64,000 bases of DNA from a virus. The notes beneath the pieces are model-generated. The model made no database searches. It was not told the DNA's origin and saw only the letters and a program-made list of their open reading frames with translations. The position numbers were made by a program, and so were the translations under genes. The stretch is taken from the IMG/VR virus record IMGVR_UViG_3300028840_002073, positions 2,783-66,782 of that record; one strand, given 5' to 3'. Position 1 is the stretch's first letter. Each line of letters starts with the position of its first letter. Shown one piece after another: positions 5,416 through 62,393 of this stretch.

Positions 5416-6669
5416 CTACGTGCCCAGGATCGGGTCCGTGAGGCCCTCGAGCCGCGAGCTCGACCGCGGCATGGTGTTGATCTGGTTCTCGACGCAGCCC
5501 ACGTAGGCCAGGAACCCGGCCTTGTGACCCCCCGACGTCGGGATCATCTTCAGCAGGGCATCGTCGTCGATCCAGTCGACGTCCATCGCGGTGTACCGAC
5601 CGAACACCTCCCAGCAGAGGAAGTAGATCCGACCGGGCTCGATGTCGAAGTCGACCTCGAGCTTCATGTTGACGCCGGGGTAGATGATCTGGAGCGAGTC
5701 CTCGTCGTACCCCACGGTGTACTTCGGCGCGGACCCGGTCGGACCGGGGTAGCGCCGCTCGGCCTGGATGAACTCGACGTACTTCCGGGCCTGACCGGTG
5801 TTGGTGAGCGCACGGGTGACCCGCTTGCCCGTCTCCCTGCGCGGCAGGTCGATGGTCTGCAGGATCATCTGCTCGGTCAGGTCGTTGTTGCCCGCGTCCT
5901 CGACGAACGAGTTGAGCTCCGGGTAGGTCGAACGGGACTGGCCGAAGATGGACGCGGCGTCCGAGGCGTCACCGATGATCTGCGGGAGGGTCCAGATGGA
6001 CCGCCCGGAGGTGCCGGTGATGTAGACCTCGTCGCCGGCCGCGATGGCCGCGTCGTCCGCGCCGGAGTACGTGATGACGTTCGTGTCGCGGTTCAGGACG
6101 GTGATGGTCCGGTTGACGGCGGTGCGGAGGGCCCCGCCGGGGATCTTGAAGTCGATCCGCATGTTCTTGTTGAGAAGCAGGTTGCCCAGCGGCGTCGCCA
6201 GGGTCACGGTGCTCGACCCGTCGTTGGTCGAGACGTAGCCCAGGATGGCGCCGTAGGAGCCGGCGTAGACCTTGTTGATGTACTTGCCGAGTTCCGCGAC
6301 GGTGTTCTCGACGCGGTCGGCCATGATGCCGCCCTGGTTGAAGGTGCCCACCTTGGACTTGGCGGCGACCTTGGTCTTGACACCGATCTGGAACGAGCCG
6401 GTGAACAGTTCCGGGGTCACTTCGCCCTGCACGCGGGTGGGGTCGATGGGCGACGGGAAGTCGCCCACGTCGGCGATGAGGCCGACGTTCCAGGCGGACG
6501 CGATCCCCAGCGGGAACTTGGCGATCCCGTCGTTCATGACGAGATCGACCCGCTGAAGGTCACGCCTGTACTTCGTCTCCTTGTTGACGGGCTCCTCGAA
6601 CGTCCCCGGGGGGTATGCGTTCTTGAGCTCGGTGGTGATGTCTTCGAATGCTCCTGGGGTGGTGGCCAT
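5416..6669 (-). CDS. Major capsid protein (HK97 fold presumed)
   Basis: 417 aa after scaffold; strong codon bias; ELK..YP N-arm, L.QI...IFG.SRSTYP.L.S pattern and C-terminal ...L.GL typical of this capsid class. Confidence 0.8.
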   Translation of the reverse strand: MATTPGAFEDITTELKNAYPPGTFEEPVNKETKYRRDLQRVDLVMNDGIAKFPLGIASAWNVGLIADVGDFPSPIDPTRVQGEVTPELFTGSFQIGVKTKVAAKSKVGTFNQGGIMADRVENTVAELGKYINKVYAGSYGAILGYVSTNDGSSTVTLATPLGNLLLNKNMRIDFKIPGGALRTAVNRTITVLNRDTNVITYSGADDAAIAAGDEVYITGTSGRSIWTLPQIIGDASDAASIFGQSRSTYPELNSFVEDAGNNDLTEQMILQTIDLPRRETGKRVTRALTNTGQARKYVEFIQAERRYPGPTGSAPKYTVGYDEDSLQIIYPGVNMKLEVDFDIEPGRIYFLCWEVFGRYTAMDVDWIDDDALLKMIPTSGGHKAGFLAYVGCVENQINTMPRSSSRLEGLTDPILGT

Positions 6670-6684: not shown

Positions 6685-7818
6685 CTACAGACCTCTCTCG
6701 CGCAGGTACTTTCTGGCCCTGAGCATCTGAGGGGTCGTGTCGCCCGTGGACATGAGAGAAGGCGGAACCGGAGGCTTCTTCGCCACCGGCACCGGCTTGT
6801 TTGCGTTCTTGCCGGTCACCTTCCGCTTCTCAGCCGAACGCTTCTCGAAGCGGGTCCTCGACACCAGGTCGCGGTCGGTGAGGTACTCCTTGACGTAGGA
6901 CTCCACCATCTGGGGGACGTCGAGGTCCTCCAGGTCGGTGTCGCCCTGATTCATCAAGTCGACCATCATCGCGCGGTTGACGTGGTTCCAGAGAGACTGT
7001 CGGAACCGCTCCTCGGGGGGAGCGTCCAGTCCGTCTGCCGTCTTGGTGATGAGGGTATCCACGTACTTCGGGAATTCGGCGTTGAAGCGGGCGGTCTTCG
7101 CCTGCTCGCTCTTTTCGGTTGACCTCTGCTGTTTCGCTGCCTTGATGAGCCAGTCCTTGTCGGTGAGGAGTCGCTCCATGTCGAAGGCGTAGCCCTCGCG
7201 CTTGTCGTTGAGGTTTCCGTACCGATCAATGACCGACTGTCGCTTGCCTTGCGCCGCCTCGAGCTGGGCCTTGAGACTCTCCTTCCGGTACTCGTCGTCC
7301 GAATCTTCGAGCCTGGCTTCGATCTTGGCGATGTTCTTGTCGGCGTCAGCGAGCTTGACCAGGACTTCCTGCTGCTGCTTCTCTGCTGTCTGGTCTTTCT
7401 GATAGAGGGTCTGGATGCGCTTGTCGAGGGCCTCGATCTGAGGAGTGGACGGGGGCTCGTCGGGTTCCTCGGGCTCCGGGGGCTCCTCCTTGGCGAGTTG
7501 CTCCCTGAGTTCCTCGTTCTCCCGAGCGACACGAGAGGCGTAGTTCTTCGCCTCCCAATACTGATCGCCAACCTGGGCCCGCAACTCCTTGTCGGAGAGG
7601 TTCGGGTACTTGGCCCGCAGGGCCTTCCAGGACTCGGCGTCTTCTTCCTCGGCTGCTCCTTCAGTCGTGGCGTCTTCCGGTTCGGCTTCGGCCTCACCTT
7701 CGGCGCCAGGGACCTCGATTTCGTCTCCGTCTTCGGTGGGGGGCGTCCCCGTCATGTCCTCGGGCGCACCATCAGAGGGCGTCTCGGTGGCTGCGTCGAG
7801 GTTTCCGTTTTCCTTCAT
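6685..7818 (-). CDS. Capsid scaffolding protein
   Basis: Acidic disordered N-terminus, long coiled-coil, basic C-terminus; immediately upstream of MCP. Confidence 0.7.
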   Translation of the reverse strand: MKENGNLDAATETPSDGAPEDMTGTPPTEDGDEIEVPGAEGEAEAEPEDATTEGAAEEEDAESWKALRAKYPNLSDKELRAQVGDQYWEAKNYASRVARENEELREQLAKEEPPEPEEPDEPPSTPQIEALDKRIQTLYQKDQTAEKQQQEVLVKLADADKNIAKIEARLEDSDDEYRKESLKAQLEAAQGKRQSVIDRYGNLNDKREGYAFDMERLLTDKDWLIKAAKQQRSTEKSEQAKTARFNAEFPKYVDTLITKTADGLDAPPEERFRQSLWNHVNRAMMVDLMNQGDTDLEDLDVPQMVESYVKEYLTDRDLVSRTRFEKRSAEKRKVTGKNANKPVPVAKKPPVPPSLMSTGDTTPQMLRARKYLRERGL

Positions 7819-26779: not shown

Positions 26780-27092
26780 CTCCTTTTCGGTTGAACGTAG
26801 GTCTGCGGCGAGTGCGTCGAGGGGGTACGGGGCCATCAACGGGGTCAGGCCCGGTTCTCGTCGAGCTTGTGGTCGCCGCACCAGTCGGCGGGGAAGACGA
26901 CGGGGTAGCCGCCCATGGTGGGGGCGTGGCGCCGGCAGCGCCCGAGGTCCTGGCGATCGGGCTGCTCCTCGCCCTTGGCTGGGGGTGTGGCGGCTTTTCG
27001 GACGTAGAACATGCAGGTTCGGCAGGACATGGCGGTGGAACGGTGCTTCCAGGGGTCAGGGTTCATGATTTCTCCTTTTCGGTTGAACGTAG
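26780..27092. repeat. 21-bp direct repeat containing an RBS (26780-26800, 27072-27092)
   Basis: CTCCTTTTCGGTTGAACGTAG in two identical copies. Confidence 0.8.
26845..27066 (-). CDS. Small 4-Cys protein, paralogous pattern to 22641-22817
   Basis: SCRTCMFY...GRCRRHAP...YP.V...DWCGDH. Confidence 0.7.
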   Translation of the reverse strand: MNPDPWKHRSTAMSCRTCMFYVRKAATPPAKGEEQPDRQDLGRCRRHAPTMGGYPVVFPADWCGDHKLDENRA

Positions 27093-27526
27093 TTGCGGCG
27101 TTCGCGGTAGATGTGTCGGAGCCAGCCGACGTACTCGGGCGGGCTCATGTGCCTCCAGCCGCGGGAGGCGGTGACGTTGTAGACCCAGAATCCGCGATCT
27201 ATCTCGTCCAGGATCGGCACGACGGCGTAGAGGGGGACCTGGAGGCGTTCGGCGAGGTGCCTGAGCATCATGCCCTGGGGTCTGGTGGTGGCGAGCTTGT
27301 CCAGGACCTTCTCGAGGAAAAGGGGAGAGGGGTCAGGGTGGCACCATTCGGGGTCCGCCACCGAGAGTTCGAGGACGGCGACGGGGACTGGCTCGTCGGA
27401 GATGATGGTGTATTCGACCTGGTCGGCGTCTCCGACCGCACCGTGGCCGAGCTGGGTGCGCCAAGTGCGGTAGAACTCGGTTCGGTCGGCCCCGCCGGCC
27501 TTGGACCAGTTGTCGTTGTAGGTCAC
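27056..27526 (-). CDS. Hypothetical protein
   Basis: GTGA-coupled start at 27526; globular composition. Confidence 0.6.
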   Translation of the reverse strand: MTYNDNWSKAGGADRTEFYRTWRTQLGHGAVGDADQVEYTIISDEPVPVAVLELSVADPEWCHPDPSPLFLEKVLDKLATTRPQGMMLRHLAERLQVPLYAVVPILDEIDRGFWVYNVTASRGWRHMSPPEYVGWLRHIYRERRNYVQPKRRNHEP

Positions 27527-29330
27527 GGGTCCTCCCGGGGTCCGGAAGGGCCATTTTCGGCCTCCTGGGGCTCCTGACAGCCCGAATGGGCCTCCGAGAA
27601 GGCGTCCGCGAGGTTGCACCACACCGAAATGGGCTTCGGGAGGCTGATTTCCGCGATGTCGCCGCATCTGCGGCACCGGAAACGGGCTCCGTTGGCCTCT
27701 GCGACGACCCAGGGGACCTTTCTGCTCATCTGACGCTCAAGACGGCGCCCACGAGGGCCCCGAACATGGCCCAGACGGTCAAAACGGCGGCCCAGATGGC
27801 CCTTTTCAGGCCTCTCATGGCGAGCCAGGCCTCGAAGGTGTGGTGCTCGAGGCCTTCGAGGGTGTCCACGAGGCTCCGGCCGAGCCGGATCGAGCCACAT
27901 TCGGTGCAGTCGGGGTCTTCACAGCCTTCGAATGGAGGGTGTCCGAAGGTGGGGTTCACGTCATCCTCCTCTCAGCCGGTCCCAGAGGGCCCGGAGCTTG
28001 CCGGCGAGCCACATGAGCGCGTTTCGCTCATGGGTGGGGCGGTAGTAGTAGACCTTCTGGGTATCGAGGCGCATCTGACGGAGCTCGTTGAGGCGATCCT
28101 GCTCCCTGAACAGCTCCGGCAGGAACATGGTGGAGCACCGCCGGCAGACGCACGATGGGGGGTGTGGCCGCCCGCCAGGGAGTCGCCAGTCGACGTCGGG
28201 GTTCTCATCCTCTTTCCGCATCGTCCTCCCCCAGTAGCTCGCGGGCCTTGGCCCTCCATGCCAGCCACTCATGCGCAACGTCGTCATCGGCCAGCGGCTT
28301 GTCCTCGTCCACGCAGAGGGGGTACATGGCATCGACCACCCCCACCGCCTCCCGCAGGCACCTCTCCACAGTCTCCCGCACCGCCTTCTCCCACTCCCTG
28401 TCCCTCTCCTCCCGCACGCGGGCGAGGAGGACGGCGAGGGTTTCCACCTCATCGGGGTAAAACCGTGGCTTCCCAACCCATTCCCTGAGCCACTCCCGGG
28501 CCCTCGCCCGGTCCTGATCGGTTGGCTCAGTCATCGGCGACCCCCAGTAGCTCGCGGGCCTCCGCGTAGTCTTCGGGCTCAACCCAGAAATCCGGGCGGA
28601 CATAGCAGCGGCCCCTGCGCGCCTTCAGCCGCTTGACTGCCGCCCCATGCTTCCGGGGGCTGCGCCACTTCCACACGCCCAGCCGTCGCACGCGGGCTTT
28701 CGCTCGCTGCCACCATGGCTTACTCATTTCTCCCCCAGCCTGTATAGATTCCCAGCAGGAAGCACACCACCGCCCAGAAGCACGCCCACTCGACACAGGT
28801 CATTTCCCTTCCTCCCCCAGTAGCTCGCGGGCCTCGGTGATCAGGGCCGACACCACAAACCGTGTGTTGTTCGGGTCCGCCATGTGCTCCGACGCCTTCC
28901 GCAGGCAGGACTCCGCTGCCGGAATCCACTTCTCCCTGCGAGCATGAATTTCGGCGGAAATGGCAACGTAGTCCTTGGGCACTTCGAGAGCAGCCTTCAA
29001 CCGCTCGTTTTCTTCGACCAGCTTGCCACCTTTCTGTATCGCTCCTTCGAACAGAACTTTCAGCCGCTCCACCTTGCTCTCCATCTCCACTAGCATCCGC
29101 TCCCGCTCCTCCGTTGCATGGTTGGCAATGGTGACGCAGTTCTCCAGGGCGTTTTGTTGGCTTCTCCGTTCCGTTACCTCAACCCTCAGCCGGTCCCGCT
29201 CCTCCAGCAGCGCGAGGAAGTCTCGGGCCATAACTGACGCCTTCAGTTGCGTCGGCTCATAGTGAGGATCGGCGGTAGCCCGCGCCCGCTTCTCCGCTTC
29301 GGTCCAGTCAGACGTGCCGTCGTCGGCCAT
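27523..29330 (-). other. Run of small coupled genes (27523-27729, 27726-27959, 27961-28221, 28205-28534, 28527-28727, 28720-28803, 28800-29330)
   Basis: Overlapping starts and stops; CxxC, TM and coiled-coil micro-proteins. Confidence 0.6.
28228..28834. repeat. 21-bp repeat x3 at gene 3' ends (28228-48, 28541-61, 28814-34)
   Basis: CCCCCAGTAGCTCGCGGGCCT, read as ARELLG in three genes. Confidence 0.85.
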
Positions 29331-29853
29331 CTTCGTCCTCCAGTTGGGCCAGGAGCTCCTCGATGGATCGCAGCTCCGAGAAGGCCTGGGAGCGGGTCAT
29401 AACCCCGTGGTCCCCGAAGGCGCTCTCCGGCCACTCCAGGGCCTCGGTTCTGGTGGCCCAGCCCATCATGCGCGCGAGAGTCTCCTCCTCCTCCAGGCGG
29501 ACGGCCACGTAGACGTCCCGGCGGTGCCGTGCGAGCTGCGCGGAGGGGATCATCATGCGGCGGTAGTTGGCCTTGGAGGCCGTCTTCACGTCCAGGCGCA
29601 GCACGCGCCCGCTGGCCCACGCGATCACGTCGAAGTCGTCGGCCTTGCCGTCAGAGCGGTGGCAGGACCGGAAGGCCTTGCCTTTCTCCTCCAGGAGGTG
29701 CTCGAAGGCCAGGTGCCCGAGGGTCCCGAAGTAGTACCGCTGCTGGATGGACAGGTGGGTGTAGTTCTTCCGCTTGAGGGTCTTGCTCCGGGCGATCTTC
29801 GCCTCGATGTCCCGGGCCTCCTGGACCCAGGACTGCTGGATCTCGACCAGCAT
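29308..29853 (-). CDS. PD-(D/E)XK restriction-endonuclease-like protein
   Basis: G.LG..AF...DD.D...LDVKT...D.YV.V...GW pattern. Confidence 0.55.
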   Translation of the reverse strand: MLVEIQQSWVQEARDIEAKIARSKTLKRKNYTHLSIQQRYYFGTLGHLAFEHLLEEKGKAFRSCHRSDGKADDFDVIAWASGRVLRLDVKTASKANYRRMMIPSAQLARHRRDVYVAVRLEEEETLARMMGWATRTEALEWPESAFGDHGVMTRSQAFSELRSIEELLAQLEDEDGRRRHV

Positions 29854-30918
29854 CAGAACTCCAGGCGGTTGGCGGCGTCGTCGACGGCATCCCGGATTCT
29901 GGAGAGGCACCGGGTCTGCTCAAACAGCCATTGGCCGTGCGTCGATGCGGCTGGGCCGGGCTCGGCCGGCTCCTTGGGCTGCTCAGGTGCGTCGGACATG
30001 ACCGGCCCCAGCCGCTCGATCAGGTGCCTTACCACCTGGTTGAGGCAGGCCAGCTCCTTCTCGTGGTTCAGGCAGAGCGCCTCCATGATGGAGCCCTCGG
30101 TCCGCTTGCCGAGTTGCTGCCCGGCCATGGCGGCGTTGCGGTAGGCGCGGTGGTCCTCGATCCGCTCCTTGCCGCGGGCCATCTCAACCTCGGACATCAG
30201 GAGGCCTCGTCCTGTCGTTTCCTCACTCATCTTTCCCCCCTCGGGACCCGCTTTCCAGGCTGGGTCCGCTTGAACTTCGGTTTGCTGTTGAGGTACTTCC
30301 CGCAGTGCGGGCACTTCTTCCGCTCCAGGTAGGCGGCCTGTCGGCACGTCCGCCCGCAGTACTCCTGCTGCTTCGGCTGGTGCGGTGGGTACTCTCTCCC
30401 GCATCGCTTGCACGTCTTGAGCGGCGCGTTCTTCGCTCGAGGCACGCTACCCCCCGAACGCCGTCAGGTAGGCCAGCCGGTAGTGGGGTGGCGCGTTCCG
30501 GGCCATGTCCCTGGCCATGGCCTCGGTGTACTCATAGCCGTACTCGCGGAGCCAGTGACCGATCATGCGGGCCGCCCCGCCGAAGGCCAGGAGGAGCGGG
30601 TCGTACTGGTACTTGGAGATCCGGATGGTCGTCGGGTCTACGTCCATTTCCCTTCGCCCTCGCCCGGGAACTGCTCCGGGACCTGGCGTAGGAGGACCGG
30701 CTCCGGGGGCGGCTCCCGCTGGTGACGCGCGAGAGCCGCCCCCGCCGCGAAGGCCAGAGCCGCGAGGAGAAGGAGGGAAGCGAGCTTTGTCACCGGTTCC
30801 CCCTGCGGGAGAGCTGCTGAAGGCGCCGGAGCTGCTTCCTCCGGGCCTGGCGCTTCCTCTTGGCCATGGGCTTCTTGTAGTGGGGATGCCGAACCCCGTT
30901 GACCGTAAAGACGTTCAC
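29853..30918 (-). other. Five small genes (29853-30230, 30227-30445 Cys-rich Zn-finger-like, 30447-30647, 30638-30793 with signal peptide, 30790-30918 basic)
   Basis: Coupled ORFs; 30638-30793 hand-translated as MTKLASLLLLAALAFAAGAALARHQ... Confidence 0.55.
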
Positions 30919-31097
30919 GAGCCCCCCTTCAGCCGCCTCAGGAAGGGCGACTCCTTCTCCACCAGCGCCTCGAAGCATCCGGGAGGGTAGACCTCCTTCA
31001 AGGCGCAGAAGAAGACGTGCTCCTCCGCAGCCTTCTTGGCGACGAAGGGGGCCGCGACCAGGGCCGCGACCCGTGCGATGAAGCCTCGCCGCTTCAC
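30915..31097 (-). CDS. 60-aa protein: twin-arginine-like signal plus capsid N-terminus-like segment
   Basis: GTGA-coupled at both ends; MKRRGFIARVAALVAAPFVA...LKEVYPPGCFEALVEKESPFLRRL. Confidence 0.7.
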   Translation of the reverse strand: MKRRGFIARVAALVAAPFVAKKAAEEHVFFCALKEVYPPGCFEALVEKESPFLRRLKGGS

Positions 31098-32077
31098 AGC
31101 GTGAACCCGTGCTTGGCCTGGACGAGCGGGGCCTTGCACGCGATCGTCACGTCACGCCCGTCGCTCATCGTCCCGCCGGCGAACAGGAGCCCGACGAGCG
31201 CGTTGCCGTCGTAGCTGAGGATCGCGCTGCCGCTGTCGCCGCCCTGGCTGAAGGGCCCCCCGGCCGAGATGATGAGGAGCTGCTCCTCGAACAGGGCGGT
31301 GAAGTAGTTGTACGACACCTCGACCGTGAGGTCCGTGGCCTCCACGACGCCCTCGGTGAACTCCGTCGTGCGCCCCGCCTTCTTGACGTGCTCGCCGATG
31401 GTGGCGTCCCGGATGGCGACCGGTCGCCCGAAGCCGTGGATCTCGGGGGTGTAGGTGCCCCCAAACTCCTCGGCCAGGCCCGAGTCCATGAGGTTGGGGT
31501 AGTCCCCCTCGAGCGCCCCCTGCGTCGAGGGCCTCCAGGGGATCATGTCGAGGCACCCCGGGGGCAGCTCGCCGCCGCCGTTGCCCGGGTCCTCGTGGAG
31601 GATCTTCACAAACTCCGTGAGCTTCGCGGCGAAGAACCCGCTGTCGGTGATCGAGCCGCCATCGGCCCGGCCCGGCTGCAGGATCCAGTCACCCGCCGTC
31701 GCCTCGTTGCTGTTCGCCAGGACGTGGTTGTTCGACAGGATGTGAGGCCTGCCGTTCTTCATCACCCAGATCCCGAGCGTCCCCGCGGTGATGTCCTTGT
31801 GGCCGACGCTGAAGCCCCCCGGAGTCGGCCTCATCTTCTGCGTGAAAGTCTGGGGGGCCGCCACAGGGTCGCGGGGTGCCCTGATCTCGCCCCAGATGAC
31901 CACGTCGGTCGGACGGCCCTCGACGGCCCGGGGCACCACGTCGACGGGGGCCAGGCCGGCGATGGGGAGCTTCTTCGACACGACCACGACCACCGTCCCG
32001 TCCTGCCGGGTGTAGGTGGCCTTGACGTTGCGTTTCGCCAGGAGCGTCGCTCTGGCGTTTGCGGAGATGGCGGCCAT
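31094..32077 (-). CDS. Trypsin-like (S1, Nal1-type) serine protease
   Basis: GTLG, ILSNNHV (His), QPG..DGG, D..LA (Asp), GRTT, GDSGS (Ser). Confidence 0.85.
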   Translation of the reverse strand: MAAISANARATLLAKRNVKATYTRQDGTVVVVVSKKLPIAGLAPVDVVPRAVEGRPTDVVIWGEIRAPRDPVAAPQTFTQKMRPTPGGFSVGHKDITAGTLGIWVMKNGRPHILSNNHVLANSNEATAGDWILQPGRADGGSITDSGFFAAKLTEFVKILHEDPGNGGGELPPGCLDMIPWRPSTQGALEGDYPNLMDSGLAEEFGGTYTPEIHGFGRPVAIRDATIGEHVKKAGRTTEFTEGVVEATDLTVEVSYNYFTALFEEQLLIISAGGPFSQGGDSGSAILSYDGNALVGLLFAGGTMSDGRDVTIACKAPLVQAKHGFTL

Positions 32078-32103
32078 AGAGAGTCCTCCTCTGCCTGCCC
32101 TGA

Positions 32104-32132
32104 AACCTATAACTCTACAGGGTGGGTGTCAA
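32104..32132 (-). promoter_or_regulatory. Sigma70-type promoter of the protease-led operon
   Basis: TTGACA-17 nt-TAGGTT, followed by a GAGGAG RBS. Confidence 0.75.
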
Positions 32133-32186
32133 GAAAAGATGCAGGGGGATGCCCGATATTTGGGCCTCGGAGCCGGGCTCGTGGCC

Positions 32187-32614
32187 CTACTTCGGGCCCG
32201 TGATCGTCTCGCCGTCGCGCGAGGGCCCGAGGACCGTGGTGTTGGAGCTGAACTTGCCCCAGAAGGCCACCACCAGAGCGGTGAAGATCCCGCTCCACTC
32301 GTTTCCGGTCACGACCCCGTCCGCCAGGGCCAGTTGCAGCGCCGGGGCCGCGGCCCCGATCCCGTACAGCAGCGACACGACCAGCTTCTTGACCAACATG
32401 GACACCTCCAGGGGGCGCCAGGCCCCCGTCCTCTGTTTCAGCCACCAGATCACGACCCTGATGACCAGCGGCAGCCGAATCTCACCCGGCCTTCGGCCGT
32501 GTTTCCGCTCCGTGATCTTGCGAGCTCGCCTCCAGGCCTCGAGCGGCGTGAGGCCCCGCAGGTTGATGAGGTGCATCCGCCTGGCGTCGAAGTGGGCGTC
32601 CCACTCGTCCTGGG

Positions 32615-32618
<4 letters not shown>
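32187..32618 (-). CDS. Holin-like two-TM protein; internal start at 32399
   Basis: ATGA-coupled start at 32618; second ATG at 32399 with GGAGGTG SD; two TM helices around DGVVT..EW. Confidence 0.5.
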
Positions 32619-33379
<761 letters not shown>

Positions 33380-33388
33380 GTCGTCCTC

Positions 33389-35458
33389 CTACCAGAACTT
33401 CCCTTCGCCCGCCGCGTAGTCCTCGGCCATGCCTTCCGGCCCGATGTCCCGCGACCAGATCTTGATCTCGTCGACGACATGGTCTTCCTGGCCGACCCCT
33501 ACAGTGAACTGGTTGGAGGAGTCAGCGAGTCCACCATCGACTCCAGTACCACAGACCGTGTCGATGCAGGCGTAGGCAGTCGTGCCTGTGTAGCGACCGC
33601 AGGCGTGATGCCATGAGTTGAGCGTCGCATTCCCAGCCACGGCGGACACAATGCTGCCGTCGCCGACGATGAACTCAACTCGCCCCGCAGGGCTATCCCC
33701 GGTCCGGAGAATCCACCCAACGCTGGTCGAATACTCCCTCGCAATGTTGTTGTCGGTCGTGAAGTTCCGCCCATTGACCCAGGCGCAAACCGAGAACGGC
33801 CCGGCGGACCCGAACGGGCTCGTTGCGTTAGACAGGTACGAGTTATCTCCGTCGTCGAGTCGGACCCCCATCCCGCTGTCCGGCAGCTCCACCAGACCGG
33901 CGGCCTGGGTGGGAGTATTGACTCCTGTCAGATCGTTCGACCCGATGGCGTCCTCGTAGGGTCCGCCAGCCTCGGACATTGGCCAGCAGGAGACGAGAGC
34001 CACCTTGTCTGCCGTTGTGAGTTCACTACACGACTTGCCCTTACCACCGTTGTACAAAGACGATCGAATTGAGGCGTCAGGAATTCCAGTGTCGTAGTAG
34101 AAAACGGGCCCAATGACTCCATCGCTATAGTTGGTTCCATACGTCCCAACTGTGAACGCTCCTGAGCCAGTGTTTGATGTGGCGAATGTTCCAGCGCTGT
34201 CCCTGATTGTAGTATCTGCATTCCGCTCCAGGTGGACTTTATCGTCTCCTGCACCGTCCCACCATGCACATACGAATGTCCGTGTGCCATTGGCCAGGAA
34301 CGCAGAGCCAGAACTCACTGCCAAACCAGTTCCGCCACTGTCTGCGAAGTTGGCAGTGAGCACTCCAGCGCTGGAGGTAAATAGGTGGAAATCGCTGGTA
34401 GAACCAATGCCAGTCCATTTGGAAATCAAGTAGTCGTTACTTGCCATCGTCTCTGGACGAATCCAGAAGCAGAATCCACGGCCAATGGCATCTCCATCGA
34501 ACGAGGAGTTGTCGTTAACGTAGGCATACTGGCTGCTATCATTCTCGAAGTCTGCCGCATACCCCTTCGCCCCACCAGTTGGGGTAGGGGTGTTCACAGC
34601 CGAGAGGTCGTAGGCGTCCCCGTACTCGACCAGGGGATCAGACGCCTCCAGGGTCCCGGTAGCGGTCCCGTTCGCCCCGGAGATCGAGTCGGTGAGCCCC
34701 CAGGTCGAGAGGTCCATCGAATAGCAGGTGGTGGCGGTGGTGTTCTGCTCAACCCACTCGCAGTCGCGCCCAGCCCCAGAGTTGTAGAGGTCGGAGGCGG
34801 GAGGCTCACCGTCGATGAAGGTGACGATCTGGTCCACCTTTCCCACGAAATCCGGCCCAGCCGCGTTGGCCCCGATCCGGAAGTCCGCAGACGAGTTCGG
34901 GGCGTCGTAGTCCATGTCGCCCGAGTCGATGAAGTAGCCACCCCCGTTGACGGAAACCCGTGCCTTTCTGGTCGGGTCGTAGAAGTAGCCGCACATGAAC
35001 GTCTTGGCCCCGGGAGTGAACGGAGCACTCACCTCCGTCGTTGTGTCCCCATCGATCCCCCGCTCGTAGCGCACCCAGACGACGTTCGTCCCAGTGGTGA
35101 ATGACAGCTCGACGTCGATGTAGCCGCCCTTGAACAGAATCTTCTGGTCGTTCCCCACGTCGTCGAACCAGACACAGGCTGACAACCCCTGGCCGCCCGT
35201 GTGGTTGAAAGCCTCGTGGTCGGGCACAGAGACGTAGTCCCCCGAGGAGAACGTCGCTGACTCTGCCCGGTTGTGGAACGCCGAATCCCAGCCCATGTTG
35301 TCGGGGTCGTTGAACGTGTAGTAGGCAGCGAGGTTGGACCAGATGGGGGGCCAGGAGTCCCCCGCCATGTCCACGGCGCCGTCGTCGGGCTGGGACTCGT
35401 ACACCTGACCGCACACCGGGACGGCCAGGAGGAGGAGCGCGGCCAAGAGCTTCTTCAT
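33389..35458 (-). CDS. Signal-peptide, multi-LamG (concanavalin A-like) protein
   Basis: MKKLLAALLLLAVPVCG|Q; three LamG-like repeats (F.G.VDQ, G.IGP, VDE..IW.R...Y..G.G). Confidence 0.75.
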   Translation of the reverse strand: MKKLLAALLLLAVPVCGQVYESQPDDGAVDMAGDSWPPIWSNLAAYYTFNDPDNMGWDSAFHNRAESATFSSGDYVSVPDHEAFNHTGGQGLSACVWFDDVGNDQKILFKGGYIDVELSFTTGTNVVWVRYERGIDGDTTTEVSAPFTPGAKTFMCGYFYDPTRKARVSVNGGGYFIDSGDMDYDAPNSSADFRIGANAAGPDFVGKVDQIVTFIDGEPPASDLYNSGAGRDCEWVEQNTTATTCYSMDLSTWGLTDSISGANGTATGTLEASDPLVEYGDAYDLSAVNTPTPTGGAKGYAADFENDSSQYAYVNDNSSFDGDAIGRGFCFWIRPETMASNDYLISKWTGIGSTSDFHLFTSSAGVLTANFADSGGTGLAVSSGSAFLANGTRTFVCAWWDGAGDDKVHLERNADTTIRDSAGTFATSNTGSGAFTVGTYGTNYSDGVIGPVFYYDTGIPDASIRSSLYNGGKGKSCSELTTADKVALVSCWPMSEAGGPYEDAIGSNDLTGVNTPTQAAGLVELPDSGMGVRLDDGDNSYLSNATSPFGSAGPFSVCAWVNGRNFTTDNNIAREYSTSVGWILRTGDSPAGRVEFIVGDGSIVSAVAGNATLNSWHHACGRYTGTTAYACIDTVCGTGVDGGLADSSNQFTVGVGQEDHVVDEIKIWSRDIGPEGMAEDYAAGEGKFW

Positions 35459-35934
35459 GGGAGCCTCACAGTCCTCTGGGCGGTGGGTGGCTGCTCCAGC
35501 TTCCAATGCCAGTTGAGCACCGTAGGCGTGCCGAGGGAACAGTCCACGTTGGCCTCGAAGGTCACCTGATTCGTCCCGGTGGTGAAGACGACGTCCCCAG
35601 ACTGGTAGAACCCCGCGCTGCCCTGGTCCGCGTAGTCGCTCCCACTGTCCACGTAGCAGCCCAGCGACCCGGCATCGTTGTAGCAGGAGATGTAGTAGTC
35701 GGTGGTGAGGATGCGGATGTCGGTCGCGTTGAGGCACTCCGTCGTCGTGAGGAGCCTCCCGCCGAGGAAGGAGTCCGCCGGGATCTCGACGATCATGAAC
35801 TCCGTGTCCACGGACTCCGTCACCGCCGTGACGCCGTAGCTGATTGCTGCAGCCCCCGGCCCCGAAGGCGGCGGGAACGTCTGCCCCAGGAGCAGGAGCG
35901 GCGAGAGTAGCGCGAGAATCAGTAGCTTCTTCAT
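35455..35934 (-). CDS. Signal-peptide beta-sandwich protein
   Basis: MKKLLILALLSPLLLLG|QTFPPPSG; 4 Cys. Confidence 0.7.
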   Translation of the reverse strand: MKKLLILALLSPLLLLGQTFPPPSGPGAAAISYGVTAVTESVDTEFMIVEIPADSFLGGRLLTTTECLNATDIRILTTDYYISCYNDAGSLGCYVDSGSDYADQGSAGFYQSGDVVFTTGTNQVTFEANVDCSLGTPTVLNWHWKLEQPPTAQRTVRLP

Positions 35935-37929
35935 CTCACCCTCACGGAATGGTCGCCAGTGCGTACCAGGCGTAGGTGTCGGACGAGTTCTTCGCGCACA
36001 CCTCGAAGGTGTCGGCTACCCCAGCACCCCCCTGGTCCCTCCACAGCACGCCCCGGATGGTGGAGTCGCATGTCGGCTTGGTCCCAGAGTCGGATACCAC
36101 CGGGCCTTGAGGCTTGATGATGAGGCGATTGGATTCGGTCTGCTGGGTTGAACCCGAACCAAGGGCTGATCCTGTCCTCAGGTAGATCCACCCAGGAACC
36201 CCTGCACCAGTCCCGAACCCTCCACGGATGACTACAGCGCCCCCGTCGTAGTCGGTGTTCCCGGCTGCCGAATCGACACCCATCCAACTAGACAGCGATG
36301 GCGTCGAGTAGCCGTTGACGTCTACCCCTCCGATGTTCACGTAGCCCTGAGCCCCGTGGGCGAAGAACGCTCCCTGGAGCGTGTTGAGGGACGAACCGGA
36401 TGCTGCTCCCCCAGGAGCGATGGTCAGCGAGATGTTTCCTCCAGCAGCCGTACCCGTCCCGACCCCACTCCGGAGGTAGGTGCCCGTCGAGGCGGTGTCG
36501 GTTCCACTGGCCCGCTTCCCCTGAAGGATGATGTGGTCCGAGGAATCCCAGAGCCCTGCCGTGGTGTTGTCAGTGAACGAGTAGGAGGGTCCAGTGTCAG
36601 CACCGTCCGCCTGGAGGAACGGGACCGTCGCGGTGACGTCGGCCTCGTCAATGGTCATCCGAGTCGTGGCAGTTTGCTGGGTGGTGCCACTCCCGAGGGT
36701 GGTACCAGTTTGCAGGCGAATCACGCCTGGGGCTGCCGCCCCTGTAGACAGTCCACCTCTCAGGTACAGCTTCCCCGCCTCTATATCGGTGACACTTGCC
36801 GCCCTGTCCGATGCGGCAATAATGGTGTCTCCTACGAGGCTGTTCTCAATGGTGTCGAGGCCACCGATCGTCACCGTCCCGCCTGCGTTCGCAACAATCA
36901 CGGGCGAGTAGCTGTTTGGCGTACTGCCGCTGGTGGCTCCCTTCGGAGTGACCTGTACGTTGAACTCCCCGCCACCTCCAGTCCCGGTGGAGGCACCCCC
37001 CTGGAGGGCAACAGTGCCACCAGCCGCATCCGTCCCAGAGCCGTCTGCCCCAGACACGATGATCGCGCCTGACGCCCCCCACATCCCCGAGCTTGGTGCA
37101 GACGCAATCGAATAGGAAGGAGCGGTAGCAGAGCCGTCCGGACCCAGGAGCGGCCACGTCAGCCCGCCCGAGAAGTTGACCCCTGCGCCCCCGCCTGCGC
37201 CACGCGCCGCCAGGACAGGGCTCGCTGCCTCCACGTAGTCGTAGGAGATGAAGTCGGCGTCAGCAGCCGTGGTCTTGTAGGCAGTTGCCCCTGCTCCAGT
37301 CGTCCGCCCTGCCGTGGTCGGGATGTTCGTGGCCAGGGTGTCGGACCAGAGGAGCGTCCCAGTGTCGTCGTTCAGGCTGTAGGACACCGACGAGGCATCC
37401 GAGTTGACCGTGACCCGCCCGGTGTACCACGTCCCCGTGCTGATCGTGTAGGAGCTGGTGGTCGTGCTGCGGGTCCCGTTGTCGGCGGTCATCCCGTCGA
37501 GGGTGGTCCCGTCGATGTTCAGGTAGACCCCATCGGTCGGTTCCGCTGCAGTGAAGCTGTCCTGAAAGCCGAGGTGGGCAACGACGTCCGTCGCAGCGTC
37601 CACTTGGAAGACGATGACGAAGGCCTCGCCCCCTCCGATCAGGAAGCTGAAGCCGCCTACCTGCCAGTAGACGCCACCGTTGGCGTTGGAGTTGTTGCCG
37701 ACCTGCACGACACCCGGATGGGGAACCGTGCCGTCGATCTGGGTCTGGTTCCCGCTGTTGATAACCCCGGAGCCGAAGTGGGTCCCGGAGGTCCCAGTGA
37801 AGTCCCACCAGAGCACACGGGTGCCGTTGCCCCCCGAGGCCCCCTCCGGGGGGTAGACGACCTGAGCGAAGACAGGAACAGCCAGGAGTAGAAGGATCGC
37901 CAGTAGCTTCTTCATCTCACCCTCACGGA
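35920..37929. repeat. 29-bp identical direct repeats flanking the 657-aa gene (35920-35948, 37901-37929)
   Basis: CAGTAGCTTCTTCATCTCACCCTCACGGA = stop, RBS and MKKLL on the minus strand. Confidence 0.9.
35942..37915 (-). CDS. Signal-peptide tail-fibre-like Gly/Thr-rich protein
   Basis: MKKLLAILLLLAVPVFA|Q; repeated DG....PSYS and GG...L.GG.STG motifs; C-terminal PTC...RG...C...W module. Confidence 0.7.
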   Translation of the reverse strand: MKKLLAILLLLAVPVFAQVVYPPEGASGGNGTRVLWWDFTGTSGTHFGSGVINSGNQTQIDGTVPHPGVVQVGNNSNANGGVYWQVGGFSFLIGGGEAFVIVFQVDAATDVVAHLGFQDSFTAAEPTDGVYLNIDGTTLDGMTADNGTRSTTTSSYTISTGTWYTGRVTVNSDASSVSYSLNDDTGTLLWSDTLATNIPTTAGRTTGAGATAYKTTAADADFISYDYVEAASPVLAARGAGGGAGVNFSGGLTWPLLGPDGSATAPSYSIASAPSSGMWGASGAIIVSGADGSGTDAAGGTVALQGGASTGTGGGGEFNVQVTPKGATSGSTPNSYSPVIVANAGGTVTIGGLDTIENSLVGDTIIAASDRAASVTDIEAGKLYLRGGLSTGAAAPGVIRLQTGTTLGSGTTQQTATTRMTIDEADVTATVPFLQADGADTGPSYSFTDNTTAGLWDSSDHIILQGKRASGTDTASTGTYLRSGVGTGTAAGGNISLTIAPGGAASGSSLNTLQGAFFAHGAQGYVNIGGVDVNGYSTPSLSSWMGVDSAAGNTDYDGGAVVIRGGFGTGAGVPGWIYLRTGSALGSGSTQQTESNRLIIKPQGPVVSDSGTKPTCDSTIRGVLWRDQGGAGVADTFEVCAKNSSDTYAWYALATIP

Positions 37930-38420
37930 GTTTCCAGGGCCGTCCACCCCTTGTCAGGCGCAGGACCGAACAGCCCCCTCGCCTTCTCGTAGACCACCCC
38001 GTCGTACTGGATCCGGTAGGCTACCTGCACCCCTTCCCCACCGGAGTTCTTGAACGTGTTGGTCCGAAGCTGCACCGGACCCGTTGCGGGGAGGTCCACA
38101 CCCGAGAGCACCCAGGTGTCCCTCGTGTCGTCGTAGCAGTCACCGCACACACTTCCTACGAAGGGACCCGGATCGTCGTGCGTGACCGTGGCCAGCGCCG
38201 AGTCCGAGGGGTCCGTGTTCGGCAGCACCGTCGAACTCCACGTCGGGTGGCAGAGCCTCAGCGGGTTGCTCGCCACGCACGCCTGGAAGTCAGTCGTGAG
38301 GCTGGCCTCCTGCGTGTCCATCCAGGCATCCGCCTCGGCCTGGGCCTGCACCAGCGTGATCTGAGCACTGGCTGGCGCCGCCATCAGCACCAGCACAACG
38401 AGCAGCTTAGTGAACCGCAT
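37923..38420 (-). CDS. Signal-peptide hypothetical protein
   Basis: AGGAGG RBS; MRFTKLLVVLVLMAAPASA|Q. Confidence 0.7.
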   Translation of the reverse strand: MRFTKLLVVLVLMAAPASAQITLVQAQAEADAWMDTQEASLTTDFQACVASNPLRLCHPTWSSTVLPNTDPSDSALATVTHDDPGPFVGSVCGDCYDDTRDTWVLSGVDLPATGPVQLRTNTFKNSGGEGVQVAYRIQYDGVVYEKARGLFGPAPDKGWTALETP

Positions 38421-39867
38421 AGATCCTCCTGATCTCCGGCCTCTGGCTCCAAGCGAACCTCGGCCCCTCGAATATGAAGTCCCAGTACGCTGAGTAGAAG
38501 AAGCCTGCTCCAGAATTGTAGAGTTCGTCCAGCTCGGCAGTGGACAGGGCCCTTCGCCAGAGTGCGAGGTTGTCGAACTGCCCCAGCAAGGTGTTCGCAG
38601 AAGTGACCCCAAACTGAAAGCTGGGGTCCCCATCCGAGGCCCGCAGGGGATAAGTCATGACCTCGGACTCTACGGTTTCATCCGCACGGTGCCAGCAAGT
38701 ATTGGTGGCGCTGTCGTATCCACCAGCGACGAAGTGCCAGCGACCCTCGAACGCACCTATGGCCTGGTTGTAGGTATTCGCTTCAGTGTCGTAGCAGCGG
38801 GTCACGTTGTTGTAGTTCAGAATCGACAGCCCGCTGCTGACACCGACAGTCACCTGATACGAGGTGATCTCAGCCACCTCTCGGAACATCCAGTAGGAGT
38901 AGGAGAACGACTCGTCCTCCGCGAGATCGAAGACTGCATCTCCGAGAGTCATCGTCTCGTTGGTGCCTGAGTACCTGACCGCCATCCCCGAGTCGCTCTG
39001 CTCCACCAGCGCAGCAGCCCGTGTGGGGGTGTTCACCGCCGTCAGGTCGTTCGACCCAACAACGTCCTCGTAGGGCCCTCCATTCTCGGACAGGGGCCAG
39101 CAGGACTCCAGATTGGAGGTAGGTGCATCATCACACAGCAGCCCCTTCCCGCTGTTCCACAGGGTAGCCCTCGGGGGGATTCCACCCTTGTAGTAGAAGG
39201 TTCTGCCCTGCACGCCGTCCCAGTCCCCGCCAGGAGCCGCTGGAATCTCCAGATCGTTTGCGGTGTCGGCTGGGTAGTTGGTCAGGGCTGCGCCTGCCGT
39301 CGCCGTCTCGTTGTCTATGGAGATGTATGCCTTCTTGTCCGAGGAGTCGTACCAGAAGCAGGCGAAGTGCCGCTTCCCAACCGTCAAGTTGGTGGACGAC
39401 GTAGCCACACTCGTTCCCGACACAGAGTCGTAGATGATGGTCTGCGAGAGTGCAGTCTTGAACTGGATCAGGTACTCGTCCTGCTTGTAGACTGGCCGTC
39501 TACTTGTGGCATCGAGAGATTCGGGCCTCACCCAGGTGCAGAAGCCGAAGCTGGTGTTTGACCCCTGCGACACAGAAGCGTTGTCGGTGACGCTGGCGTA
39601 CTGATCGGAGTCGATCTCGAAGTCCGACGCATACCCGAGTCCTCCACCCGTCGCGGTCGGGGTGTTCACCTCGGTCAGGTCGTAGGTGCCGTCGCCGTTG
39701 TCCGCGCCCAGGTCGTCGGGATCGTTGAAGGTCCAGACCACTTCGGCGTCGTCGTAGACACCAGTCCCCCCAGCCTCGACCGGGTAGTAGATCGGCCCTT
39801 CACCGGGGTAGTCCTGAGCGACGAACGCACTGAGCGCGATCGCAAGGAGAAAGATCGCCGTTCTCAT
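38407..39867 (-). CDS. Signal-peptide, double-LamG protein (paralogue of 33389-35458)
   Basis: MRTAIFLLAIALSAFVA|Q; GQFDNLALWRRALS.AE..ELYNSG.G. Confidence 0.75.
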   Translation of the reverse strand: MRTAIFLLAIALSAFVAQDYPGEGPIYYPVEAGGTGVYDDAEVVWTFNDPDDLGADNGDGTYDLTEVNTPTATGGGLGYASDFEIDSDQYASVTDNASVSQGSNTSFGFCTWVRPESLDATSRRPVYKQDEYLIQFKTALSQTIIYDSVSGTSVATSSTNLTVGKRHFACFWYDSSDKKAYISIDNETATAGAALTNYPADTANDLEIPAAPGGDWDGVQGRTFYYKGGIPPRATLWNSGKGLLCDDAPTSNLESCWPLSENGGPYEDVVGSNDLTAVNTPTRAAALVEQSDSGMAVRYSGTNETMTLGDAVFDLAEDESFSYSYWMFREVAEITSYQVTVGVSSGLSILNYNNVTRCYDTEANTYNQAIGAFEGRWHFVAGGYDSATNTCWHRADETVESEVMTYPLRASDGDPSFQFGVTSANTLLGQFDNLALWRRALSTAELDELYNSGAGFFYSAYWDFIFEGPRFAWSQRPEIRRIYAVH

Positions 39868-39901
39868 CGGAGCCTCCCCTCGCCCAGGAGGAGAAATCGC
39901 T

Positions 39902-40663
39902 TCATGGCGTGACCGCGAGGGTTGCCGTAACGCTCTCACGGGTGCCCCCGTCGCTGGTGCTGTAGGCGAGCGAGATCCGGCACTCGGAGAAGGCATTGTG
40001 AGGGATCTTGTACGAGAGCCCCTGGCCGGTCGTGCTGAACTGGCAGACCGTTCCGCTCAGGGTGCCATCGCCGCAGTCGGAGCTCGGGCCCGGATAGACC
40101 CGAACGTCAGACGCACCCAGGGCCCCCTCCTTGCAGAAGTAGGCGACGTCCAGGCTGCCGAGGTCCCCGGCGTCGTACTGGACCGTCATCTGGACCGTCC
40201 TGTAGCCCGAGACGCGGATCCACCCGTCGTCACCACCAGTCCCGCAGTTCAGGGTCTTGTAGTAGTAGGCGTTGTAGTCGGCGTCGTCGGTGGTGTTGGC
40301 GACGGTGATGTTGTTGTTGTTGGTCTTCACCGTGACGTAGGTTTCGACGTCCGGCACCACGGGGTCGGCGCTGGTGTCGCCGTCGCTGGACCGCAAGATG
40401 ATGGCGTCGCCAACCGACACGTCGGCGAAGGCATCGTTCGTTCCGTTGTCGATGATCGTCCCGGCGGTCTTCTGGATGTCGTAGTCGGGTGCGATGACCT
40501 TGAAGCCGGTCGTGTCGAACGGATCACCGTTCCTGCCGGTCACGGTGCAGTAGGTGGCGGTGGTCGAGGCGACGTCGTATCCGAAGGCGAAGTTCGCCTC
40601 CTGGGCCGTTGCTGGAATGGCCAGGGCCAGTACGAGGGCCGCCAGCACGAGAATCCTTCTCAT
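39902..40663 (-). CDS. Signal-peptide virion-like beta protein
   Basis: ATGA-coupled; MRRILVLAALVLALAIPATA|Q; 6 Cys. Confidence 0.7.
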   Translation of the reverse strand: MRRILVLAALVLALAIPATAQEANFAFGYDVASTTATYCTVTGRNGDPFDTTGFKVIAPDYDIQKTAGTIIDNGTNDAFADVSVGDAIILRSSDGDTSADPVVPDVETYVTVKTNNNNITVANTTDDADYNAYYYKTLNCGTGGDDGWIRVSGYRTVQMTVQYDAGDLGSLDVAYFCKEGALGASDVRVYPGPSSDCGDGTLSGTVCQFSTTGQGLSYKIPHNAFSECRISLAYSTSDGGTRESVTATLAVTP

Positions 40664-40926
40664 CGTCCTGCTCCTTTCGCGGCCAGGGCCGCCTTGCTCT
40701 TTCCGTGTCCGTTCAGAATCGCCTCGAGATAGGCGAGTCTCTGCACGATCCCATGGTGCTGGTCGTTGTTGGTCCGCTCGTAGCGGATCACCCGCTTCGC
40801 CATCGCCCGATCCCGGAGCTCGGCCTTGTCGAGTGCCGTCATGATGTGTGAGTACCCGATCCTTCCGAAGGCCCCGAATAGAACCCCGAATGCGCCAATG
40901 ATGATTGCTGCCGCTGATCCATCCAC
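40660..40926 (-). CDS. Single-TM protein next to the endolysin (holin/antiholin candidate)
   Basis: N-terminal TM plus coiled-coil tail. Confidence 0.5.
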   Translation of the reverse strand: MDGSAAAIIIGAFGVLFGAFGRIGYSHIMTALDKAELRDRAMAKRVIRYERTNNDQHHGIVQRLAYLEAILNGHGKSKAALAAKGAGR

Positions 40927-41405
40927 TAGTAAGCCCTCCCGAATTGAAAGTGCATGGCGTCAGGCACACGCCATCTCCCCCCCCATGTCCACCCGAGGCG
41001 CTCGAAGACCCGGACGACTTCTCGCGGCATATCGAAGTCGACCTGGCCGAGGCGATTCGTCCCGGCGTTGAAGTCGAGAGCGGCCCCGAAGGCGTGCATC
41101 GAGAGCTTGCTCGAGCCGCGCTTCGGTCGCCAGGTGTAGCCGCCGTCGTAGGTCTTGAGGAGGCCCCAGGCCCCTTCTTCCATGAGGGCCAGGAACGTCT
41201 CCTCGACCAGCCCAGCGATCTTGTTGTGGACGCGCACGCGGATTGCCTCGGTCCTGGGGGCCCACCCGAGTGGCAGCGGGTAGGGCATCGGAACCAGGAC
41301 CATCTGCGACTCCCATGCTGGGTGGGCGGACCCATCGGCGCGGATCCAGAGGTTCGGGTTGCCGTAGAAGGCGGTGAGCTCTTTCAGGCCTCGTGGAGAC
41401 TTCAT
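40926..41405 (-). CDS. Endolysin, peptidase M15 family
   Basis: R...S.H..G.A.D...WGG.W..PD.MHFQ zinc-peptidase motifs. Confidence 0.88.
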   Translation of the reverse strand: MKSPRGLKELTAFYGNPNLWIRADGSAHPAWESQMVLVPMPYPLPLGWAPRTEAIRVRVHNKIAGLVEETFLALMEEGAWGLLKTYDGGYTWRPKRGSSKLSMHAFGAALDFNAGTNRLGQVDFDMPREVVRVFERLGWTWGGRWRVPDAMHFQFGRAY

Positions 41406-62355: not shown

Positions 62356-62363
62356 GTCTCCTC

Positions 62364-62393
62364 TTTACACGCTCGCGTTGAGCGTGTTAGTGT
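62364..62393 (+). promoter_or_regulatory. Promoter with palindromic operator in the spacer
   Basis: TTTACA-18 nt-TAGTGT with TG extension; ACACGCTC-N5-GAGCGTGT at 62367-62387. Confidence 0.55.

Follow-up and report, generated by a model that had tools for sequence, protein, structure and literature searches.

A capsid-arm copy behind a twin-arginine-like leader in a family of small phage proteins

Why should a phage encode the N-terminal arm of its major capsid protein (MCP) a second time, in a tiny gene of its own and behind a leader peptide? The question is raised by a micro-gene in the IMG/VR virus record IMGVR_UViG_3300028840_002073, a 66,782-bp sequence with direct terminal repeats that is rated 100% complete. 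The window analyzed here, 64,000 nucleotides long, comprises bases 2783-66782 of that record. The micro-protein is translated as (GTG)KRRGFI...LKEVYPPGCFEALVEKESPFLRRLKGGS, with KKAAEE after an uncharged stretch and then an MCP-like segment. We assign it to a small, unannotated family whose anatomy and homology are firm. The capsid gene lies 24.2 kb from the micro-gene, in agreement with the 24 kb given in an original prediction for this locus. The features on which the argument depends are as follows.

30915..31097, minus strand: micro-gene of 60 codons plus stop with a GTG start, identified as an open reading frame (ORF) and by its translation
31038..31097, minus strand: micro-gene leader, residues 1-20, consisting of MKRR, GFIAR, an 11-residue uncharged stretch ending P-F-V-A, then KK
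30927..31010, minus strand: capsid-arm copy of the micro-gene, residues 30-57, identified by BLASTP, an independent family profile and column comparison with 24 MCP N-termini
5416..6669, minus strand: MCP gene, 417 amino acids, identified by phrog_14242, capsid_maj_Podo and 27 related IMG/VR loci
6544..6654, minus strand: N-terminal arm of the MCP, residues 6-42, representing the type from which the copied module comes

The micro-ORF is a functional, accessory gene, and the 66.8-kb phage genome that carries it is complete. At third codon positions its G+C content is 0.92, like that of the genome's real genes, and the identical 60-amino-acid protein is also called on two to three near-identical contigs.

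Homology to the capsid N-terminal arm

In a pairwise BLASTP comparison, residues 33-57 of the micro-protein align without gaps to MCP residues 15-39 (13 of 25 identical, 31.6 bits, E 5e-7). The alignment of 24 residues that had drawn attention to the locus was recounted from both translations and again gave 13 of 24 identities, and its significance was borne out by shuffling: none of 5000 shuffles of the micro-protein reached the local score of 65 obtained for the pair (mean of the shuffles 25.2, standard deviation 3.8, maximum 44). A six-frame search of the whole 66,782-bp genome returned the MCP N-terminus as the sole non-self match (E 7.2e-4). The strongest test of homology is free of the window's own copy. 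Specifically, a profile built from 14 family members from other samples, with the window copy excluded, was compared with 967 open frames (113,627 residues) of the window; it matched the micro-ORF (E 2.1e-18) and, within the MCP, residues 6-41 (E 2.5e-10), with E 4.8 for the frame ranked after these. Profiles made only from micro-proteins found the MCP N-terminus as their best match in all 11 of the other related records (G011-G021). At the level of sequence, homology to the MCP N-terminal arm is confirmed as real and beyond chance.

The micro-gene and the MCP gene share 43 of 75 aligned bases (57%), with 15, 17 and 11 identities of 25 at the first, second and third codon positions. This DNA identity, lowest at third positions, indicates an old homology at the protein level, and on these figures we reject both gene conversion with the MCP gene and a DNA repeat of recent date. 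The domains of an HK97-fold MCP (A domain, P domain, spine helix and E-loop) were not found in the 60 amino acids, where only MCP residues ~6-41 are matched. The micro-protein is a copy of the arm without the capsid fold, and hence not a capsid protein.

A word-based search with the micro-protein recovered only the protein itself. An exhaustive phmmer search of 1.84 billion representative proteins identified six relatives (E 1e-7 to 1e-4), and a profile search brought the number of remote homologues to 14 in all, with lengths of 73-135 amino acids. Including the window copy, the family comprises 15 intact proteins of 60-135 amino acids and 27-81% pairwise identity, in which both end modules are kept while the linker drifts. 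The leader, M-x-RRGFLGR-LLAI-AAP, has R3, R4 and A12 invariant and M1, F6 and L7 conserved in at least 90% (alignment A7, 15 members); 13 of the 15 members start M-x-R-R, and the uncharged stretch that follows M-x-RRGFLGR usually ends A-A-P-x-V-A before a K or R. A linker of ~0-50 residues without conserved sequence leads to the arm module, F-x-x-I-x-x-x-L-K-x-A-Y-P-P-G-x-F-E-E-x-V-x-x-x-S-x-F-x-x-x-L-K-R, which is an ungapped copy of MCP residues ~5-42 and extends to ~55-60 in the longer members and in the related genome G012. In longer members the arm copy is sometimes followed by an acidic tail. The original prediction had staked itself on the existence of analogous leader-capsid fusions elsewhere, and 15 proteins and one frameshifted genomic copy share this build.

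No family in Pfam, PHROGs or NCBIfam covers the window's micro-protein. A Pfam scan of the 15 members produced isolated weak matches to unrelated models and nothing else, and four other members compared with PHROGs or Pfam matched nothing. The contigs of other family members measure 64,124, 62,875, 30,127 and 24,418 bp. Scanning genome contigs with the family revealed no relative, and IMG/VR scans with the module and the leader recovered only MCPs, one further protein (from genome G011, described below), unrelated leader ORFs and a single chance match inside a terminase gene.

The source of the module can be traced within 24 MCPs gathered from the phage group at 29-92% identity. Their N-termini fall into two types, the window's clade carrying Y-P-P/T-G-T-F-E-E-P-V-N-K; the arm is nearly invariant at 67-92% MCP identity and recognizable down to 29%. 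Over the 37-residue module, mean identity is 0.41 among micro-proteins, 0.39 between micro-proteins and MCPs of the YPPG clade, 0.26 between micro-proteins and the other MCP clade, and 0.75 within the YPPG-clade MCPs. By these values the family descends from the 5' end of a YPPG-type capsid gene and has been evolving faster than the capsid arm. The window copy is no nearer to its own MCP arm (identity 0.35) than to other MCPs of the clade, so there is no sign of continuing gene conversion. The comparisons show that the family arose by partial duplication of a YPPG-clade MCP gene, whose 5' end was placed behind an N-terminal leader.

The MCP itself matches phrog_14242 'major head protein' (E 1e-17) and capsid_maj_Podo (E 3.1e-7, below that model's cut-off), and its profile found no relative by sequence among solved structures. 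AlphaFold2 models reached a predicted local distance difference test (pLDDT) value of 35.7 with nine sequences and 60.8 with 24, residues 1-134 lying below 50. In the model, helices at residues 12-18 and 33-39 flank the YPPG motif, but pLDDT is below 50 there. Foldseek returned no match to the PDB at E <= 0.001; phage capsids (9in6, 7f38 and SU10 entries) are among the weak matches, mixed with ATP synthases. The predicted HK97 fold of the window's MCP derives from family matches only.

The leader as a candidate export signal

The original prediction described the leader as twin-arginine-like. The RR-type leader is real and conserved, and its identity as a signal of the twin-arginine translocation (Tat) pathway is plausible yet unproven: NCBIfam TIGR01409 (TAT_signal_seq) weakly matches 8 of the 15 members (E <= 10, best E 0.016) and is the sole NCBIfam model to match several of them, whereas Pfam TAT_signal matches none. 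Tat signals follow the consensus S/T-R-R-x-F-L-K. In the family, RR stands at the boundary of the n- and h-regions within a motif of this kind (K-R-R-G-F-I-A-R in the window copy), the hydrophobic stretch has a proline towards its end, and 13 of the 15 members have a basic residue after the stretch. Feature matches to Tat-bearing clusters score 0.82-0.83, within the range expected by chance.

The uncharged stretches are 8, 8, 8, 11 (six members), 12 (three members), 14, 15 and 24 residues long (median 11), with a mean Kyte-Doolittle hydropathy of 2.2-2.7 in 13 of the 15. A stretch this short cannot cross the membrane as an ordinary helix. A transmembrane helix, a holin and a spanin were also considered for the micro-protein and rejected on the length of the stretch.

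A pattern scan of IMG/VR for a start codon followed by x-RRGFLGR gave 17 matches. Ten of these, representing eight distinct small ORFs, have a hydrophobic stretch and C-terminal parts that are unrelated, as expected of a portable signal. Each of the eight ORFs was also compared with the locus that encodes it, and a paralogue at locus L197 was the one significant match other than self. None of the eight carries a copy of a neighboring structural gene, and a leader joined to a virion fragment is therefore not general among those examined. Across seven related genomes in six frames, RR leaders of the window type occur only in the window copy and the G012 copy.

The loci with such leaders (L191, L193, L195-L198, L200, L202-L204 and L262:2741-3001) are GC-rich viral contigs on which small ORFs of 75-179 amino acids start with M-x-RRGF(L/F)GR and a hydrophobic stretch, their C-terminal parts being unrelated. 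The leader ORF of L197 has its paralogue in tandem, and IMGVR_UViG_3300017997_000001 encodes two RRGF-leader ORFs, one of them just upstream of the terminase gene.

An MCP 87% identical to that of the window occurs on short contigs of two Planctomycetota metagenome-assembled genomes, both of which encode TatC, with an uncertain host assignment; one family member is named from a Gemmatimonadales metagenome-assembled genome. Overall, we consider it plausible that the leader is a twin-arginine-type export signal.

Distribution and genomic surroundings

Among eight large related genomes, the micro-gene is present in two, the window's own (G000) and G012, where it is frameshifted; it is absent from G006, G011, G013, G017, G018 and G019. 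Family profiles find only MCP N-termini in nine of the 11 other related records (G013-G021), the exceptions being G011 and G012. The window shares only the head module with G006, G011, G012, G013, G018 and G019. Outside this module and one exonuclease gene, the relatives match the window in scattered parts, none of them at 20-31 kb, the region of the micro-gene.

G012 is a 56-kb record that IMG/VR classes as a provirus, with a family member at ~41.6-42.1 kb (C1:41600-42090, plus strand; L252/L253). Its frameshift lies inside the Y-P codons and may reflect an error of assembly, decay or programmed shifting. The GTG start of this copy overlaps the stop of a 98-amino-acid Cys/His-rich ORF, again as GTGA. 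G011 carries the module in a different setting (L175:6064-6561, plus strand, corresponding to G011:C1:4006-4503, minus strand), at the N-terminal end of a leaderless protein of 166 amino acids (E 2.3e-9 with the module profile). For the rest of this protein, feature comparison yielded nothing beyond AEP (primase-polymerase)-like leads below threshold, with all scores under 0.9. Its module is nearer to the YPPG type than is the MCP arm of G011 itself.

The genes bearing on the surroundings of the micro-gene and of the MCP gene are these.

31094..32077, minus strand: S1-family serine protease gene, 327 amino acids, matching phrog_20754 'protease' (E 1.5e-46), with weak Nal1_C and S64 Pfam matches
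6685..7818, minus strand: candidate scaffolding protein with an acidic N-terminus, a coiled coil and a basic C-terminal helix, and a weak match to a coiled-coil-type PHROG

The GTG start of the micro-gene and the TGA stop of the protease ORF share the letters GTGA, so that the predicted coupling of the two genes is present in the window. It is not a trait of the family: the upstream gene is a different one in G012, which has no protease, and none of 159 loci with protease homologues holds a family member. Patchy presence together with a varying upstream gene makes the micro-gene an accessory insertion, coupled to whatever stands upstream. The separate promoter that had been proposed for the micro-gene did not emerge from a sigma-70-type scan of 29500-33500, which gave no promoter-like site; the promoter type of the host may differ. 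For 27000-34000, no RNA source was listed.

In the protease, H118, D198 and S282, the last within a GDSGS motif, show no variation among 19 relatives or among 50. The protease family has more than 6660 members in bacteria, archaea and viruses, and the metagenome relatives are at most 46% identical among the matches listed. The genes downstream of protease homologues are diverse, and several of the homologues in viral contigs have small membrane proteins after them. Co-folding of the protease (50-row alignment) with the micro-protein (15-row alignment) scored 0.00 against a mark of 0.32, from which we draw no conclusion. Pieces of one ~85% similar contig that match the protease and 30658-30882 are 230 letters apart, compared with 427 in the window, the intervening letters being unread. 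The shorter spacing leaves no room for the 183-nucleotide ORF and weakly suggests a sister strain that carries the protease without the micro-gene. The protease also shares 33% identity with the putative serine protease of Aeropyrum coil-shaped virus, and a 484-kb record of an uncultured phage is among its matches.

Upstream of the protease, on the same strand, the genome encodes a membrane protein, a PT-repeat lipoprotein, six signal-peptide proteins and an endolysin (40926-41405). The gene directly upstream (32187-32684, minus strand) specifies a protein of 165 amino acids with two to three hydrophobic segments and no family match, and the lipoprotein-like gene (32615-33379, minus strand) has a signal with a V-V-C-G lipobox-like site and a (Thr-Pro)n linker. 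A GGCGTC-type repeat at 32850-33083 draws many unrelated contigs, with a summed depth of 190-2374 compared with ~20 elsewhere. The six proteins encoded at 33389-40700 (minus strand) have Sec-type signal peptides ending A-Q or G-Q, a secreted block that is unusual for a phage; at least one of them, at 33389-35455, has a Laminin_G_3 (ConA-like) domain. Downstream of the micro-gene are an ORF of 51 amino acids with a signal- or anchor-like N-terminus (30638-30793, minus strand) and a 72-amino-acid zinc-ribbon protein that weakly matches the HNH-endonuclease phrog_1271 (30227-30445, minus strand).

Besides the MCP, the head module holds a large terminase, a portal-like protein of 925 amino acids and the coiled-coil scaffold candidate. 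The latter lies between the portal and the MCP genes, and its relatives adjoin the MCP gene in G012, G013, G018 and G019; we infer that it might be a ligand of the MCP arm. Elsewhere, a single ORF of 4555 amino acids (48697-62364, minus strand) contains an SF2/Strawberry-notch (Sno)-type helicase region at residues ~2195-2673 (ResIII, AAA_34, Helicase_C_4, Helicase_C). It is reminiscent of 'polyvalent' proteins, giant products packaged and injected by some phages.

Possible functions and their relation to known systems

Because no part of the family is better conserved than the leader, which also has an export-like look, we rank first, as a tentative reading, that the micro-protein may be an exported or outward-anchored mimic of the capsid arm that acts in the envelope. 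The leader would serve as a twin-arginine-type export signal, either cleaved or retained as an outward anchor, and the capsid-arm module would be displayed outside the cytoplasm. As contacts between scaffold and capsid drive assembly in known phages, a free arm is best seen as a competitive mimic of a docking surface. The displayed module would thus imitate the capsid arm and bind a protein whose usual docking site is the arms on the inner side of the capsid, for example an internal virion protein ejected into the envelope by an incoming related phage. The outcome would be an accessory function of the superinfection-exclusion type. The patchy distribution of the gene, and the lipoprotein and six signal-peptide proteins encoded near it on the same strand, fit an accessory role in an envelope-related setting. 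Both the target and the exclusion role of the micro-protein are conjecture, and the decoy, interference-peptide and assembly-anchor roles offered by the original prediction are hypothetical.

Several observations weigh against this envelope function. The known ligands of capsid arms, the scaffold and neighboring capsid subunits, are cytoplasmic, which leaves an exported copy without a demonstrated target. The window's own copy matches no curated Tat model, TIGR01409 included, and Pfam TAT_signal (PF10518) is silent on all 15 members. In 14 of the 15 the uncharged stretch spans 8-15 residues, short by the Tat norm, h-regions of Tat signals usually being longer than the family's median of 11. 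An A-x-A cleavage site is not conserved, the leader mostly ending P-x-V-A followed by K or R; the G012 copy has A-K-A. The occurrence of the module on the leaderless G011 protein shows that it is used inside the cell too. No tyrosine integrase was found in G000, G012, G013 or G018, which leaves prophage expression unsupported. Finally, the genomic contexts of the family that were read are two, the window and G012.

The micro-protein combines features of several known systems. Its C-terminal module, 28-55 residues across the family, is homologous without gaps to the N-arm of HK97-fold capsid proteins, the part which in the phage 80alpha is contacted both by the scaffold and by SaPI1 CpmB; unlike these capsid proteins, it lacks the rest of the fold, is preceded by a leader and a linker and is encoded 24 kb away from the head genes. 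The scaffold of 80alpha uses its C-terminal helix-and-hook to contact the capsid protein, 'especially the N-arm' (PMC5644958). CpmB copies the capsid-binding end of the scaffold, and Ccm of SaPIbov5 is a homologue of the capsid protein. Like these satellite assembly mimics, the micro-protein is a piece of head machinery in a separate small gene outside the head module. CpmB and Ccm, however, are cytoplasmic, have no leader, are encoded by satellites and reproduce either the end of the scaffold or the entire capsid protein, whereas the micro-protein is phage-encoded and joins the capsid arm alone to an export-type leader.

With Tat signals the leader shares a basic N-terminus, RR followed by F-L, a basic residue after the stretch and the weak TIGR01409 match. 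It differs from them in its very short n-region, short stretch and lack of a conserved A-x-A, and in having as passenger a peptide of 35-110 residues rather than a cofactor enzyme. Uncleaved Tat anchors do exist, Rieske proteins being an example (PMC13673990). The micro-protein also resembles, in its small size, N-terminal signal and patchy distribution, the phage accessory proteins that act in the envelope, without any relation in sequence. These include Imm and Sp of T4 and the lipoprotein Ltp of TP-J34, which bring about superinfection exclusion, and the T4 antiholin RI; to our knowledge, none of them copies a capsid segment. The T4 capsid targeting sequence and the cargo-loading peptides of encapsulins are portable capsid-loading peptides. 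The arm module is similar in being a short element common to unrelated proteins (MCP, micro-proteins and the 166-amino-acid protein of G011), and different in being itself part of the shell protein; packaging of its carriers is putative.

Alternatively, the arm copy may work in the cytoplasm, where it would bind the basic C-terminal helix of the scaffold or capsid subunits and so tune, membrane-tether or poison procapsid assembly in its own phage or in a co-infecting relative, the leader providing only membrane association. We regard this as rather unlikely, yet it draws on the scaffold contact with the N-arm in 80alpha, on accounts of P22, SPP1, phi29 and D3 in which scaffold-capsid contacts drive assembly, on the scaffold-like gene with a basic C-terminal helix that adjoins the window's MCP gene, and on the acidic positions common to MCP arms that the copied module keeps. 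The leaderless carrier in G011 is also consistent with it. A soluble competitor would have no need of the leader, the part that the family conserves best, and the positive N-terminus and very short hydrophobic stretch argue against an anchor with its C-terminus inside. Moreover, competing with the phage's own assembly would be costly, and the binding is putative. A cytoplasmic role of another kind, which we consider improbable, is that the arm module targets cargo into the procapsid, so that the hydrophobic N-terminus of a packaged peptide would act on the membrane after ejection. Three unrelated carriers bear the module, namely the MCP, the leader peptides and the protein of G011, whose module is N-terminal like that of the MCP, and cargo loading may be needed in a phage that encodes a protein of 4555 amino acids with an SF2/Sno-type helicase, since giant proteins of this type are packaged and injected. 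In the micro-proteins, however, the module is C-terminal to the leader; neither the giant protein nor other structural genes carry a copy of it, and packaging is putative.

The GTGA overlap, and a protease that lacks a signal peptide inside a block of exported proteins, could mean that the micro-protein is a partner of the S1 protease, as a substrate mimic, an inhibitor or a Tat 'hitch-hiking' escort. This is very improbable given that linkage is not conserved: none of the 159 protease loci has a member, their downstream genes are diverse, and the G012 copy follows another gene in a genome without the protease. The spacing on the sister contig (230 against 427 letters) argues weakly in the same direction. 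We give equally little credence to a decoy against host defense, in which the arm copy would occupy or mis-trigger a sensor that recognizes the MCP. Some defense systems do sense capsid proteins, and the known sensors are cytoplasmic. The mimicry of the arm fits such a decoy and nothing further does, whereas the export-type leader is retained across the family, one would expect a faithful mimic to set a sensor off and not to block it, and general scans, with no padloc run, recognized no defense or anti-defense gene nearby. That the gene is a decaying, functionless leftover of a partial capsid-gene duplication is also quite improbable. The frameshift inside the Y-P codons of the G012 copy and the patchy presence among relatives would fit decay; against it stand 15 intact copies at 27-81% identity that keep their end modules while the linker drifts, codon usage like that of real genes, and differences from the MCP gene concentrated at third codon positions.

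The exported or outward-anchored mimic can be extended to a broader proposal, which we put forward as doubtful: phages may export a free capsid arm into the envelope and capture there the arm-docking proteins of incoming relatives, and the arm is perhaps a portable docking module on unrelated carriers. The carriers may be a leader peptide in the window and an AEP-like enzyme in G011. As far as our literature search reached, in listings and abstracts, the family is new in print, with no description of a leader-capsid-arm fusion or of such a phage capsid mimic. Likewise, the MCP, the micro-protein of the window and the family members P0124 and P0134 have no relative in 50,697 GenBank phage records.

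If true, the proposal would amount to superinfection exclusion by capsid-arm mimicry, which is without described precedent. A virus would have cut the interaction arm off its shell protein and would send it as a stand-alone peptide to another compartment, a new route by which phages interfere with other phages or with the host envelope. It would also offer a natural handle on capsid-arm-docking proteins in a large uncultured group of GC-rich phages of ~60-67 kb. Even without an assigned function, the family, whose members are small genes left as hypothetical by annotation pipelines, shows capsid arms evolving as independent modules.

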